Source: an uncultured Bacilli bacterium (GTDB taxonomy: Bacteria > Bacillota_I > Bacilli_A > RF39 > UBA660). From it: a stretch of 64,000 bases of DNA. Under the pieces are notes generated by a model. That model was not told the origin of the DNA and made no database searches. It was given only the letters and a program-made list of their open reading frames with translations. Position numbers and translations under genes: made by a program. This document shows positions 40,825 to 48,742 of this stretch, one piece after another. The first letter of the stretch is position 1; every line of letters starts with the position of its first letter. Location: contig CANPXE010000001.1 in assembly GCA_947585665.1 (NCBI GenBank), positions 13,037 through 77,036 of the forward strand, in the 5' to 3' direction.

Positions 40825-42960
40825 TTACATGTCAGTAATAGTTGGATCAGTTGGAACAGGTATACTACCATCAGGTTTAGGTATTTCTACTTTAGAGAAA
40901 CCAATTTTATCATCGATACCTTCCATCATATCATCAAAGTCAAAGTCGTCAATAACAGGATTAACATCTAATGGATCAACATTATCTAAACTTAAATCGT
41001 ATAAAGAACTTGTATCACCAGATGTCATCATATTTTCCATAGAAGGATCATTCTCTAAAACATTAGAATTTAGTTCGGCAACACCTGTGTCTGTAGTAGA
41101 CTCTGTTACAGTATCAGTTACAGCTGATGTAACATCAGAAGTTACATCACCAGTTTCAGTAGTTGGTGCTGTACTTACATTTTCTCCTTCACCAATGTCA
41201 GGAATCTCTACATGATTATTATCATCAGTAAGAGGTTCTTCTTCTGGTGCAGGATTTATTGTATCACCTTCAATAGTTCCAGGATCAGTTGTTTCTGGTG
41301 GTTGAACATCACCATTTGCATCAGGAAGTGGATTTCCTTCTTCTGGTGCAGGATTTATTGTATCACCTTCAATAGTTCCAGGATCAGTTGTTTCTGGTGG
41401 TTGAACATCACCATTTGCATCAGGAAGCGGATTTCCCTCTTCTGGTGCTGGATTTGTTGTATCACCTTCAACAGTTCCAGTATCACCTACTTCTGGTTGT
41501 TGAACATCACCATTTGCATCAGGAATTGGTTCCGTACCATCAGCATTTGGTTCAGTAACATTTGAATCACCAGTTTCCTCAGGTGGTGTAAATGTATCTT
41601 CACCAGTATCTATTTCAGGTTCTGGAACTTCTCCTTCGTCATCTGGCACAGCTTCCCAATCACTTTCTCCTCCTATTTCTGGCTCAGGTTCAGTTGTACC
41701 TGGATCATCTGTAGGTGGTGTTTCTTCTGGTGGTTTTTCTTCAGGCGTTTCTGAAGGTTTCTCTTCAGGATTTTCGGTAGGTGGTGTTTCTGGTTGAGTT
41801 TCTTCAGGCTTTACAGCAGGTAGTGGATCTGGTTGTTGAGTTGGCGATGGATTAGTACCACCACCAGAAGGATTTGATGGCGGTATATATCCTATATTAT
41901 TAGATGTACCTCCAGCACTTGTATCATTTTTTTCAGAATCAGAAGATTCTTCTTCATTTGTCTCATCTTTTTTGTTTTCTTCTATCATAGAAAGAATTAT
42001 AGCGCTATTTAAGCCAGGGTATTTTTTTATTAAATCATCATACTCAGTGAGTGTGCTCCACCTATCACTATCGTCATCTTTTATATATTTATTATAAAAC
42101 GACATTACATCATTTTTAAATTCTTCTACTTCTTTTTCATCTAAAAAATAATAATAATAATCAAATTTCTTATCATCGTCAATATCATCTAAATCATATG
42201 AACCACCTGTTAAAGTATAAATATCACTATCAGTCTTAAGAACTAGATTAATAATATCATCAAATGTTAATATATAAGAGCTTAAATTCTCACTTGCTGT
42301 ATTAGCCGTATTAGATATTGCTGTAGAATATTGAGTAATTTCACCACATGTCATTCTATCTGCAGAATCTTTTATATTTAAAAGATTAGAAGAAATTTTA
42401 CTACATTCACCTTTTATATTTAAAAGAGTTGATTCTGTAGTATCTCGAATAAGAAAATCTTTATCTGCTAAAGCAACTACTTTACCTGTTTCAAAACTAA
42501 CACTAGGAAATTCATCTAACTGTTCAGCAATTTTTAATGCATCAAGTTCTCCTTGTGTCTTAGGTGTTAGTTCTGGTGGTTGTTGAGGCATCCTCACTCC
42601 AAGATGTTCATTTGCATAGTTGCACTGTTGGTAATATGTATTCCATGCAGAACACAAAGCATCCCATTCATCTTGTAAAGTTTGATCATCTACTGGAACT
42701 ATTTGATTTACTGTGGACACTATATTACTACAACAACTTGCAATATTCCCTAAAGTATCAGAACCCAAAACATTATCAATTTTACCTATAATTTCATTAA
42801 TTTTATCATAACCTAATTCTGTATGCCACTCATTACCCAAATCTCCTATGTATTCAGTCAACGTACCATTTATAGTAGATATGTCTTCAATATAACCTTT
42901 TATATTTTCTAATTCGTTTTTAATAGTTTTAAATTCATTTTTTGTAACTTTCCTTTTCAC
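40825..42960 (-). CDS. Acidic Pro-rich 711-aa protein; candidate T7SS substrate with WXG-like N-terminal helical domain
   Basis: GTG start after GGAGG. N-terminus ...LTEYIGDLGNEWHTELGYDKINEI... is paralogous to the 43162..43812 product. The centre and C-terminus are P/E/T/D-rich with 33-aa tandem repeats. No signal peptide or TM. Confidence 0.6.
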   Translation of the reverse strand: MKRKVTKNEFKTIKNELENIKGYIEDISTINGTLTEYIGDLGNEWHTELGYDKINEIIGKIDNVLGSDTLGNIASCCSNIVSTVNQIVPVDDQTLQDEWDALCSAWNTYYQQCNYANEHLGVRMPQQPPELTPKTQGELDALKIAEQLDEFPSVSFETGKVVALADKDFLIRDTTESTLLNIKGECSKISSNLLNIKDSADRMTCGEITQYSTAISNTANTASENLSSYILTFDDIINLVLKTDSDIYTLTGGSYDLDDIDDDKKFDYYYYFLDEKEVEEFKNDVMSFYNKYIKDDDSDRWSTLTEYDDLIKKYPGLNSAIILSMIEENKKDETNEEESSDSEKNDTSAGGTSNNIGYIPPSNPSGGGTNPSPTQQPDPLPAVKPEETQPETPPTENPEEKPSETPEEKPPEETPPTDDPGTTEPEPEIGGESDWEAVPDDEGEVPEPEIDTGEDTFTPPEETGDSNVTEPNADGTEPIPDANGDVQQPEVGDTGTVEGDTTNPAPEEGNPLPDANGDVQPPETTDPGTIEGDTINPAPEEGNPLPDANGDVQPPETTDPGTIEGDTINPAPEEEPLTDDNNHVEIPDIGEGENVSTAPTTETGDVTSDVTSAVTDTVTESTTDTGVAELNSNVLENDPSMENMMTSGDTSSLYDLSLDNVDPLDVNPVIDDFDFDDMMEGIDDKIGFSKVEIPKPDGSIPVPTDPTITDM
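41236..41532. repeat. Three tandem 99-bp repeats inside the 711-aa gene
   Basis: Period of 99 bp, verified at three landmark positions (GGTGC at 41250, 41349, 41448). Copies 1 and 2 are nearly identical, and copy 3 has diverged. Each encodes EEGNPLPDANGDVQPPETTDPGTIEGDTINPAP. Confidence 0.9.
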
Positions 42961-47100: not shown

Positions 47101-48742
47101 CATCAACAATAATTAAATATTGTGGACGATATACTTTAGTTTTATTATTATCTTGTTCTTTAGATCTTTTCTTAAACTCTTCTCCTAAAAAATTAGCAAC
47201 TTTATTAGCACTTTCTTTAGTTGAAGAAAAGAAACGAAACTTTCTTTCATTGTCAAAGCAATGATTAGTATACTTTAAATATTCCCAGTTAGAACTATTA
47301 CTTTCATTAGTAAAAACAACAATTTTTAAATCTTCATAACTATAAAAAGTCAAAAATTGAATTAAAATACCATTTAAAAAATCAATATTCTTATTTTTAT
47401 TATCACCCATTATAGCTGTTAATTTTCCTTCATGAAACGAATATCCAACAGGCGCATCATGTATATATTTATATTGAGCAATAACATTGTCAACTTTTTC
47501 CCTTAAATCATCAACATCAACTTGGAACTCTTCATGAGAATAATTAATCTCAACATCTAATTTAACATCACCTAATCCTAGACGTGCTACTAACAGGTCA
47601 TTTTGATCAAGTCTTTTATTCCAGAAACTCATATTCTTAGTTTTAATAATATTTAAACATTCTGGAACTGTTATTAAATTTTCTTCCAAAATCTCTTTTT
47701 GATTTTTAACTTCAAGAGCCAATTCACCTGCTTTTTGATCTATATAAGCAGAATATTTAGTATGTACTTCTTCTTCTCTTTGTTTACGTTGTTTCTCATT
47801 AAAAACTTTTAAAAGAATTGGCCAAAGTAACATTGATAGTAACATTATTAAACCTGTTGCAATCGTTGACCAAGAATCACGAATACTGGTTGATCCATTA
47901 TTTATTTTATCAAAAGTATTTACTAAAGTAATAATAGAAGTAGCACCCATTGTCAACATTGGTCCAACTGTTAAAATAATTGGCGTGTCTTCTTTCTTAC
48001 CCATACTAGGTGGTTTTGTCAAATCAAATTTTTTAGTTGTAAAACTACGACGTAACATTGGTGACTTTGAAAAATAATCATTTTTTGAATACAAATCTAT
48101 ATCTTTAATATTGATTTCTTTTGGTTCCTCATCATTAGGAGTAGTATAAACTTGTAATCCTGATTCCGGCTTAATCTTTATCTTTTTTCCAGGATTATTC
48201 ATTAGTAAAACATTATTTAAAAAGATTAATTTCAAACCATAAATATTTACTTGATCTCCTTCTTTTAAAGTTGCATTTAAACCAGCATTTTTATTATTTA
48301 CATAACAAACAGCTTTATTACTTTCCAACACTAATTGTCCACCGCTATTATGAACTTTTATTTGAATATCTTTTAATAAAGGGCAAGGATAAAACAAATT
48401 AGATTCAGTCGTACAACCAATCATTAAATTAATATTAGTATCATATGAATAAGGACTTACTTCACTACTATCATAATTAGATACATATATTAGGTAATTA
48501 ACAGCATTCCTATTTAAAATATAAAAGTTATCATCAATAAGTGGAAGTTCATCACTAAAACTATCTCCATTTATAACATCGACATCAGATGTAGAGTATA
48601 ATACCCATTTTCCTTCTTTTGCTTCAATATTAATCAATTTAATTTCTTCTTCAGGATTATCATCAAAACTAAAACTACCAGTTACTTCTTGTGGTAGTGA
48701 AAAACAAACTAATTTATCCTTTAAAAACAAATATATATTCAT
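44180..48742 (-). CDS. essC: Type VII secretion FtsK/SpoIIIE-family ATPase EssC (YukBA-like)
   Basis: 1520 aa. N-terminal FHA-like region (FSLPQEVTGSFSF...), two TM helices, then three ATPase modules. The first has Walker A GTTGSGKSE and Walker B LFIICDEF. Confidence 0.9.
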   Translation of the reverse strand: MNIYLFLKDKLVCFSLPQEVTGSFSFDDNPEEEIKLINIEAKEGKWVLYSTSDVDVINGDSFSDELPLIDDNFYILNRNAVNYLIYVSNYDSSEVSPYSYDTNINLMIGCTTESNLFYPCPLLKDIQIKVHNSGGQLVLESNKAVCYVNNKNAGLNATLKEGDQVNIYGLKLIFLNNVLLMNNPGKKIKIKPESGLQVYTTPNDEEPKEINIKDIDLYSKNDYFSKSPMLRRSFTTKKFDLTKPPSMGKKEDTPIILTVGPMLTMGATSIITLVNTFDKINNGSTSIRDSWSTIATGLIMLLSMLLWPILLKVFNEKQRKQREEEVHTKYSAYIDQKAGELALEVKNQKEILEENLITVPECLNIIKTKNMSFWNKRLDQNDLLVARLGLGDVKLDVEINYSHEEFQVDVDDLREKVDNVIAQYKYIHDAPVGYSFHEGKLTAIMGDNKNKNIDFLNGILIQFLTFYSYEDLKIVVFTNESNSSNWEYLKYTNHCFDNERKFRFFSSTKESANKVANFLGEEFKKRSKEQDNNKTKVYRPQYLIIVDDYDRVKEYEFVNNIAENDNNLGFSMIIVAQSLSKLPSKCNNYIDVSESSKSGLLKSNFDSQEYIQFTDEVCSNINYMDISRIVSNLPIEFEEKVGSLPNSISFLEMEKVGKVEQLNILNRWNNNDATTSLKAEIGVNAKQELMYLDLHEKYHGPHGLIAGTTGSGKSEFIITYILSMCINYSPNDVAFILIDYKGGGLALAFENKLTGVTLPHLAGTITNLDKAEMDRTLVSIDSEVKRRQKVFNEARDALGESTMDIYKYQRHFKDGRLKEPIPHLFIICDEFAELKAQQPDFMDNLISIARIGRSLGVHLILATQKPSGVVNDQIWSNTKFRVCLKVASEPDSNEMLKHPDAAHISQAGRYFLQVGYDEIYALGQSGWCGAKYYPSDRIVKQVDKSVDYINDCADIIRSVEETNDVKVEAQGEQLAAVMKNIIEVSNINNVKAKRLWLDNIPQDIVIDEIINKYNVRPVPYQVEAIIGEYDAPELQQQGIVKYNFFEDGSAITYSNDNGDSEMFFNALIYSTSRLHTAEEVNFYIIDYGSESLRKFSKLPQVGGMVFAEETEKYNSLVKMIRDEIVKRKKLFTDYGGSYMNYIKSSGKKLPLKVIIINNYDAYAEANQDSYETMPEITRDSARYGIVFVVSGLATNSVRQKVSQNFTQIYTYKLKDQFEYGYVLGSKKQIVPRDNPGRGILNNGELHEFQTGSITKTPEEFNAFVDKFIQLVKQQNPTSAPKIPTLPAHVRLEHVKPFIQKLSAVPVGLSKANISPILFDFLESRSTLIAGKKIKDINIFIQSLLKTIKLIPNCNIFIFDVNKKLGIEKTEYPNYYTSNLNDMIPKLTTYIDKKIAEGSKEYGVLLMYDLNSLKGEVDDKVLTLFVEKIKAYEKIAIIGVGDKVDEVLYDGWYKKSFGSSTYGIWIGKGFGEQNIIKTDAYSNEYNRPIKNDMGYAVIDGEPTLMKILDFLSQDEVNDNEE

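Follow-up and report, generated by a model that had tools for sequence, protein, structure and literature searches.

A type VII secretion locus with few recognised components in an uncultured lineage of gut Bacilli

The four-gene block and its boundaries

The window analysed here is a stretch of 64,000 nucleotides (about 29% G+C) from an uncultured Bacilli bacterium (assembly GCA_947585665.1, contig CANPXE010000001.1, positions 13,037 to 77,036 of the forward strand). The subject is a block of four genes for a type VII secretion system (T7SS), all on the minus strand: essC, an 88-aa gene, a 216-aa gene, and a 711-aa gene. The EssC protein is like that of the T7SSb subtype, yet the gene set departs from T7SSb, and it is a lineage-wide variant rather than a one-off. 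The genes, with the numbered protein families (F1, F8, and so on) to which we assign their products, are as follows:

44180-48742, minus: essC, encoding a T7SSb-type FtsK/SpoIIIE ATPase of 1520 aa
43924-44190, minus: the 88-aa ubiquitin-like (Ubl) gene, family F1, with an 11-nt overlap with essC (44180-44190)
43162-43812, minus: the 216-aa gene, family F8, encoding an all-helical protein
40825-42960, minus: the 711-aa gene, encoding an F8-like N-terminal domain and a disordered tail

These open reading frames (ORFs), their strand and the 11-nt overlap agree exactly with the first-pass annotation of this DNA. In the case of the 216-aa gene, an upstream GTG start would give a protein of 219 aa; the start that gives 216 aa is the one chosen by public gene callers.

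The control elements and the repeat that accompany these genes are:

48812..48841, minus: intrinsic terminator of the upstream lipoprotein gene, from the terminator scan and the sequence (48822-48841 plus a T-run)
48775..48783, minus: extended -10-like promoter element TGTTATACT, read from the sequence upstream of essC
43127..43150, minus: hairpin AGTGCA..TGCACT with a T-run, 3' of the 216-aa gene, from the sequence (the scan reported the stem on the plus strand)
43058..43087, minus: promoter-like site TTAACA-18-TAGAAT with TG, before the 711-aa gene (consensus scan, 10/12)
41238..41529, minus: 99-nt tandem repeat within the 711-aa gene, 2.9 copies, 33-aa units (Tandem Repeats Finder, 93% matches, score 500)
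40789-40812, minus: intrinsic terminator closing the block, a 10-bp stem and T-run before the carboxypeptidase gene

The terminator 5' of essC has a 7-bp stem (4 G-C pairs), a 6-nt loop and a T-run, and because of it essC is isolated from the three upstream genes, as had been proposed in the first pass. A ribosome-binding site lies 5' of essC together with the extended -10-like element, both read from the sequence; we list TGTTATACT with low confidence as a candidate essC promoter element, since it has no good -35 and falls outside the scoring of the consensus scan. The hairpin after the 216-aa gene is possibly a partial terminator or attenuator, and the promoter-like site before the 711-aa gene is a consensus match only. 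The next gene downstream, already taken for a housekeeping carboxypeptidase, encodes a Peptidase_S11 D-Ala-D-Ala carboxypeptidase (E=1e-61). The terminators and the promoter-like element thus delimit the T7SS block.

The three genes upstream of the terminator were considered as cryptic T7SS partners and rejected: they have no family matches, the terminator lies between them and essC, and the family of the 186-aa lipoprotein, like that of the 155-aa protein with a single transmembrane segment, is conserved among the nearest relatives only. They are probably unrelated to the T7SS.

Proteins of the block

EssC is confirmed as a true T7SSb-type EssC. It scores 945 bits against the NCBIfam equivalog model TIGR03928 (T7_EssCb_Firm), for which the cutoff is 778 bits, and its closest solved relative is Bacillus subtilis YukB (9qks; 416 bits, vs 133 bits for mycobacterial EccC5). 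A family profile built from the N-terminal 235 residues matches the FHA domains of Ki-67 (E=1e-5) and Rad53 (E=6e-4) across an FHA-like region at about residues 105-190, in which the phosphothreonine-binding positions Gly-Arg and Ser-x-x-His are unconserved in the profile alignment; the same has been reported for EssC of T7SSb (PMC11217815). Residues 255-275 and 291-316, approximately, form two hydrophobic segments; the FHA-like N-terminus and the two transmembrane helices described at first both stand. The three ATPase modules described with them stand only in part: canonical Walker motifs are confined to D1 (Walker A, GTTGSGKS at 707; Walker B, LFIICDE at 824). Among 80 aligned EssC sequences from 79 loci, D1 is about 90% identical with invariant Walker motifs. 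The C-terminus, D2 and D3 vary among these sequences, and the latter two are degenerate, lacking canonical P-loops.

The 88-aa protein gave a confident AlphaFold2 model of beta-beta-alpha-beta-beta topology (predicted local distance difference test score, pLDDT, 90.8; 62-sequence alignment). With this model, Foldseek returned ubiquitin, SUMO and a bacterial Ubl at template modelling scores of 0.70-0.82, and the Ubl domain of ESX-5 EccD (EccD5) at E=1.4e-4; the model and these matches confirm the ubiquitin fold. At the sequence level, the protein does not match Pfam YukD (PF08817) and has only a weak match to UBL_UBAC1, the F1 profile found no YukD/EsaB among the PDB sequences, and an hhalign comparison of F1 with YukD/EsaB reference sequences aligned in register at a probability of only 7.6%. 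As sequence searches do not recover YukD/EsaB, one needs the evidence of the fold, and the 88-aa protein, which has no C-terminal Gly-Gly, is a TsxB/EsaB/YukD-type partner by predicted fold and gene position only. The YukD/EsaB-like gene of the first-pass annotation is therefore upheld in fold and position and not in sequence family. F1 comprises more than 2,300 clusters at 90% identity and has no Pfam domain; the few clusters that carry a source name are all called "hypothetical protein."

Compared directly with 5.8 billion sequences, the 216-aa protein had only 2 homologs, and its family was recovered via gene-neighbourhood clustering and profile searches. F8 aligns with F3, a family of about 218 aa, at an hhalign probability of 95% over 186 columns, by which the 216-aa protein is assigned to F8 as a diverged branch of the lineage-wide F3. 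An exhaustive HMMER search of 1.84 billion proteins gave 111 family representatives (50% identity). Their length is nearly always 215-230 aa, and in about 20 of the 111 the domain heads a longer protein. The sole invariant residue is Trp47, within a motif W-x4-[AG] that reads WHSPLG in the window protein. The AlphaFold2 model (predicted template modelling score 0.59), built on a shallow 8-sequence alignment, predicts four long helices in two hairpins and places Trp47 with moderate confidence at the turn of the first, H30-47/H50-91.

Similarity of this family to the WXG100 proteins and EspC is weak, in register and consistent. The family aligns with S. aureus EsxA (2vs0) at E=0.055 over nearly the full EsxA length and with ESAT-6 at E=0.32. 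When the proteins are halved, WXG100 is the commonest Pfam match of the N-halves (5/52), and the C-halves match EspC (8/52) and WXG100 (3/52), all below threshold. The C-half also aligned by hhalign with four WXG100 sequences, a crude reference set, at a probability of 50%, which is a lead only. With an equally crude WXG100 hidden Markov model (HMM) from this set, the 216-aa protein was the best-scoring ORF of the whole window. It has no significant WXG100 family-model match, and its 216 aa compare with about 100 aa for WXG100; PF04740 (LXG) does not match 50 family members or the 711-aa protein. A few F3 members match Pfam Flagellin_C at their C-termini, and do so strongly for helical proteins of such short length (best E=5e-8 to 6e-7); a bias of helical composition or a genuine likeness in the C-terminal helix may account for this.

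The motif W-H-x-x-L-G-[YF] is common to the 711-aa and the 216-aa proteins (W-H-T-E-L-G in the former; BLASTP E=3e-6). The N-terminal profile of the 711-aa protein, with orthologues added, aligns with F8 at a probability of 75% over 137 columns, and the F3/F8 HMM ranks this protein second among the window ORFs (E=5e-4). The F8-like N-domain is followed by a variable structured region to about residue 340, a disordered region of about 270 aa and an acidic C-terminal tail of about 90 residues; from about 340 to 620, Pro, Glu, Thr, Asp and Gly make up 65-77% of the residues. The 33-aa repeat lies inside the disordered region, and strains differ in how many copies they have (711 vs 678 aa), the orthologue at locus L001 being exactly 33 aa shorter. 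The family scan found no enzymatic or toxin domain in this protein, and no immunity-like gene is evident between its gene and the terminator. Neither this protein nor the 216-aa protein has a hydrophobic N-terminus, in agreement with the earlier statement that both are without signal peptides. We also compared the N-terminal region of the 711-aa protein with F2, the family that fills this slot in the closest species (locus L014), and rejected it as a diverged F2 (hhalign about 1%).

The four genes evolve at very different rates, as seen when the ratio of nonsynonymous to synonymous substitution rates (dN/dS) is computed against the sister species. EssC (dN/dS 0.10, 92% identity) and the 88-aa Ubl (0.14) are under strong purifying selection, in contrast to the 216-aa gene (0.58, 61% identity) and the 711-aa gene (0.88, 43% identity). 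The upstream lipoprotein is 100% identical to that of the sister species (synonymous divergence 0.13; window 48840-49400 vs L009 40-600), and since the 216-aa gene, only three genes off, is at 61%, the hypervariability is sharply localised to the putative cargo genes. Between two strains of the sister species, F8 is identical, the EssC C-termini are 99.5% identical, and the N-terminal 340 residues of the long gene are 33% identical; conservation between species is good, however, in the disordered C-terminal part of the 711-aa protein. A machine under constraint, combined with hypervariable genes downstream, is the pattern seen for secreted or surface-exposed cargo, and it counts strongly against a decaying locus.

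Related loci and the search for further components

A scan of species-representative genomes gave at least 79 species loci with a full-length EssC, 38-65% identical to that of the window. The region covered in relatives was 10 kb on either side of essC, and ORFs in all loci were called mechanically and then clustered. Almost all loci come from gut metagenome-assembled genomes (MAGs) labelled uncultured Bacilli, Tenericutes or Erysipelotrichaceae, from rabbit, goat, sheep, mouse and human, and the relatives include Clostridium sp. CAG:417 and Candidatus Onthousia (NCBI: Bacilli incertae sedis). Some essC contigs lie in MAGs labelled Muribaculaceae, Methanobacteriaceae or Vescimonas (L025, L029, L031, L054, L062, L066, L074, L081, L086, L091 and L039); the likeliest cause is faulty binning or labelling in the public records.

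The genes recur in the order EssC, F1 (about 90 aa), F3 (about 218 aa), F2 (about 186 or 295 aa), F2-short (about 98 aa) and F5 (about 80 aa), all five families being soluble and predicted helical. Among the fetched loci, F1 adjoins essC in 83, and F3 and F2 are found in 51 and 52, respectively. The essC-Ubl pair recurs in at least 79 species and F3 stands directly after the Ubl gene in more than 50, which shows that an essC-Ubl-F3 module is conserved throughout the lineage. Six loci (L030, L069, L076, L080, L082 and L086) have two mechanically called ORFs of more than 1,300 aa; in L069 and L076 both cluster as EssC, each with its own Ubl gene, and in L030, L080, L082 and L086 the second belongs to the cluster of the F4 giants, not to that of EssC.

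A frequent accessory module consists of F6, that is, DUF4176 (88-92 bits), followed by giant proteins of 700-1784 aa and small genes; one giant protein of such a module has a transglutaminase-like core. DUF4176 is an established stabiliser of T7SSb LXG toxins (PMC12482557), and these modules therefore tie the EssC of the lineage to T7 toxin export. The N-termini of the F4 giants were compared with F3 and WXG100 and found unrelated (hhalign probability below 1%). Inside the modules, a soluble Ser/Thr kinase (F18, about 240 aa, Pkinase E=4e-19) is encoded in 7 loci; it could act in regulation or immunity, or as the partner of an effector. The kinase-bearing modules are found at L024-L026, L029, L032, L044, L055 and L083.

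In the closest species, at locus L014, EssC is 65% identical and synteny extends from the upstream lipoprotein gene to dacA and rluB. The slot occupied in the window by the 216-aa and 711-aa genes there holds F8 (243 aa), F2 (289 aa) and a 72-aa gene. HMMs for F2, F2-short, F5, DUF4176, F4 and the accessory families found nothing across the 64-kb window; the locus of the window species is reduced relative to its relatives, having none of F2, F2-short, F5 or the DUF4176-toxin modules. Independent metagenome contigs and the sister species carry all four genes of the block intact.

Pfam and NCBIfam scans of the flanking window genes that were scanned found no WXG100, EssA, EssB/YukC or EsaA/YueB, and the precomputed Pfam hits have none in about 14 kb beyond the window ends. 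The first-pass annotation had reported these partners missing near essC, and the scans agree: EssC and the Ubl are present, and the other four of six T7SSb components (WXG100, EssB, EsaA and EssA) were not found nearby. In the 79 loci, no membrane-protein family recurs within 10 kb of essC, and the flanks hold varied housekeeping genes. Of 138 small proteins from the essC blocks of about 50 species, 2 matched WXG100 weakly (best E=2.8e-4). A canonical ess/yuk cluster is found neither elsewhere in about 78 kb of the window genome nor within 10 kb on either side of essC in the relatives.

Other regions of the window deserve a brief record. Beside the gene for a 1001-aa YfhO/GtrA-type membrane glycosyltransferase lie two genes for type IV pilin-like proteins that have the methylation motif at the N-terminus (5278-6568 and 7171-10176, minus). 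In several relatives (L087, L088, L034, L041 and L053), F11 proteins of this pilin cluster are encoded directly upstream of essC, a placement reminiscent of the co-location of Tad pili with T7SSg-h (PMC11217815). Downstream of rluB is a conserved four-gene cluster (33545-38780, minus), in the same order in L014. Its products are a 220-aa protein with a single transmembrane segment, a polytopic one of 374 aa that carries an S24/S26 signal-peptidase domain, a 413-aa DUF5305 protein and a protein of 728 aa that has no family; the cluster may be a dedicated signal-peptidase/secreted-fibre type operon, and the scans found no T7SS-family similarity in it. Twelve tRNA genes are clustered at 25513-26686 (minus). 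About 24 kb from the T7SS block are two overlapping ORFs of 123 aa and 258 aa (19369-20564, minus), a putative IS3-family transposase pair by the look of their N-termini. The sporulation gene for YunB is in the window (31598-32296), and genes for SpoIIIAH and a Germane-domain protein are just past its left end (L095 12637-14402), which suggests a spore-forming, peptidoglycan-bearing member of the reduced-genome Bacilli.

Interpretation and comparison with known systems

On balance, we think it probable that the locus is a functional, pared-down T7SS of an undescribed kind, typical of an uncultured lineage of low-GC gut Bacilli. The preference of the first-pass annotation for a minimal or reduced system over decay is borne out by the low dN/dS of EssC and the Ubl, the conservation of D1 and the wide recurrence of the pair.

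Such a machine might work as follows. A hexamer of EssC, with two transmembrane helices per subunit and one catalytic module (D1), would be both motor and membrane channel. The 88-aa Ubl would bind the FHA/DUF region of EssC and stabilise the assembly, as YukD does in B. subtilis, where it binds the FHA domains, DUF domain and D1 hairpin of YukB and fixes the FHA domains for recruitment of the YukC pseudokinase (PMC12637312). The all-helical proteins encoded directly downstream would be exported; among them, the LXG-sized 216-aa protein, with its Trp at the predicted first hairpin turn, would stand in for the WXG100 protein TsxA of about 100 aa, and the 711-aa protein, with an N-domain of the same type and a disordered, repeat-bearing acidic tail, would probably be located on or beyond the cell surface.

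Several points weigh against this interpretation. No F3/F8 member passes the Pfam WXG100 or LXG thresholds, the model of the 216-aa protein is only moderately confident (pLDDT 65), and Foldseek with this model against the PDB returned generic helical bundles only, all at E>0.1. The two halves of the protein have no detectable homology to each other: as a fused tandem of two homologous WXG100 hairpins it was rejected, the half-profiles aligning at a probability of 20% over 17 columns, and because the N- and C-half profiles are not detectably related the claim of a WXG100 duplication was dropped. Export of the 216-aa and 711-aa proteins is a prediction, and the high dN/dS of their genes could reflect relaxed constraint. 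Family models were run on part of the window's genes, and coverage amounts to about 78 kb of the window genome and 10 kb to either side of essC in relatives. All the organisms are MAGs, for which misassembly or incomplete genomes are possible. Finally, every T7SS that has been studied by experiment needs further membrane proteins (PMC11217815, PMC12637312).

Given matches that are weak and consistent, an uninformative Foldseek search and unrelated halves, we describe the 216-aa protein as an LXG-sized, WXG/LXG-like helical protein and file it in neither family. It is a probable secreted substrate or co-substrate, and the 711-aa protein is a probable polymorphic substrate, secreted or at the surface. 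Because both share the WXG/LXG-like N-domain, the earlier statement that the locus has no WXG100 is true at the level of family models only.

The requirement for extra membrane proteins (PMC11217815, PMC12637312) also speaks for a split system, in which the genes for membrane partners, whether novel or resembling EssB, EsaA or EssA, and perhaps one for a canonical WXG100, would lie at other sites on the chromosome. We hold this to be possible, if on the unlikely side. It would explain why EssC keeps its FHA domains, as these are used in B. subtilis for the recruitment of YukC (PMC12637312), and only a small part of each genome has been inspected. One would, however, expect the core membrane genes to cluster with the ATPase gene, as in the known T7SS variants (PMC11217815); the 79 loci have tightly syntenic soluble helical genes and no recurrent transmembrane family within 10 kb, and there is nothing among the scanned window genes or in the 14-kb flanks. 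As only local context is covered, the split system stays the main rival.

We are doubtful of the boldest form of the pared-down reading, that is, that EssC with the Ubl as clamp is a complete, self-sufficient translocon needing no further membrane component, and that single-chain F3/F8 proteins of about 215 aa replace the WXG100 dimer, elsewhere a universal requirement, as the co-secreted "key." Should it be true, this would be a minimal T7SS and a new subtype beyond T7SSa-j.

It is improbable, in our estimation, that the 216-aa protein and its F3/F8 relatives are cytoplasmic adaptors or chaperones that replace EssB at the FHA/Ubl platform of EssC, with only the larger proteins (the 711-aa protein and the F4 giants) exported. 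The fixed position of F3 after the Ubl gene in more than 50 species would suit an adaptor, as would the lack of a signal peptide or transmembrane segment and the retention of EssC FHA domains that have no known partner. A structural core component would not typically be at 61% identity (dN/dS 0.58) where EssC is at 92%, however, and the predicted helical hairpin with a conserved Trp at its turn is substrate-like rather than pseudokinase-like, as is consistent with a domain that also heads longer proteins.

That the locus is a decaying remnant of a canonical T7SSb, its partners and secretion lost, is hardly credible: the window species does lack the F2, F2-short and F5 genes of most relatives, and D2 and D3 of EssC do lack canonical P-loops, but essC has an unbroken ORF of 1520 aa, purifying selection is strong on EssC and the Ubl (dN/dS 0.10 and 0.14), the D1 Walker motifs are invariant throughout the 80 aligned EssCs from 79 loci, and the four genes are intact in independent metagenome contigs and the sister species.

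The probable pared-down T7SS bears on a question to which the field has no clear answer, namely which components form the channel and which are accessory, and a natural minimal system would be a natural experiment. If EssC and the Ubl alone sufficed, they would be a simpler target for reconstitution and cryogenic electron microscopy. The locus also raises the question of what the FHA domains of EssC and the Ubl do where there is no EssB to recruit. Large unannotated families have been uncovered in abundant uncultured gut Bacilli, namely F1 (more than 2,300 clusters), F3, F2 and F5, and these families, together with the polymorphic, repeat-bearing putative surface protein, may mediate gut competition or host interaction.

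Compared with T7SSb (the Ess system of S. aureus and YukE-YukD-YukC-YukB-YueB-YueC of B. subtilis), the locus has an EssC with an FHA N-terminus, two transmembrane helices, and DUF and ATPase domains, adjoined by a small ubiquitin-like gene whose product has no C-terminal Gly-Gly, and the modules of DUF4176 and giant proteins in its relatives resemble T7SSb toxin loci. Unlike T7SSb, no EssB/YukC, EsaA/YueB, EssA/YueC or Pfam-recognisable WXG100 is found near essC in the window or in the 79 species, the Ubl is undetectable as YukD by sequence, and the genes conserved beside essC encode novel all-helical proteins of about 218, 186, 98 and 80 aa.

Garrett, Higginson & Palmer (2024) defined T7SSc-j from RefSeq, in practice from isolate genomes, whereas the window lineage is known only from MAGs (PMC11217815). 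All of these subtypes but T7SSi have a clear WXG100 protein TsxA and most have the Ubl TsxB; their further components include kinases, phosphatases, FHA proteins, Ig-like wall-spanning proteins, and EspG-like chaperones or a beta-propeller (PMC11217815). None of the TsxD kinase, TsxF PPM phosphatase, TsxJ FHA protein, TsxI Ig-like protein, TsxG EspG-like protein, TsgL beta-propeller or TsfV AAA+ protein recurs in the 79 loci, in which the conserved essC neighbours are F1, F3, F2 and F5 only; F3, F2 and F5 are in turn absent from the descriptions of that survey (PMC11217815). T7SS gene content varies widely in the Bacillota, as T7SSg and T7SSi show (PMC11217815). T7SSg is "relatively simple," with two WXG100 proteins, a Ubl, the ATPase and one extra protein (PMC11217815); it differs from the present locus in that its ATPase has no FHA domains and in its canonical WXG100 proteins and DUF5050 beta-propeller. 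T7SSi is similar in having no clearly identifiable core TsxA and different in its EspG-like and kinase-like components and LytR-type regulator, which are not conserved here. In the literature we found no description of a T7SS for RF39, RFN20 or Mollicutes-like Bacilli, and no subtypes beyond T7SSj.

As for the putative cargo, the F3/F8 motif is W-x4-[AG] rather than WxG/LxG, the 711-aa protein has no evident toxin domain or immunity gene, and its variation lies in the N-terminal structured region and its conservation in the disordered C-terminal one, which inverts the arrangement of LXG toxins. Like LXG toxins and WXG100 substrates, these proteins are all-helical, have no Sec signal, are encoded directly downstream of essC and have a conserved aromatic residue at the (here predicted) first hairpin turn; the domain, at about 215 aa, has the size of an LXG domain and can head longer proteins, and the genes are polymorphic and evolve rapidly.

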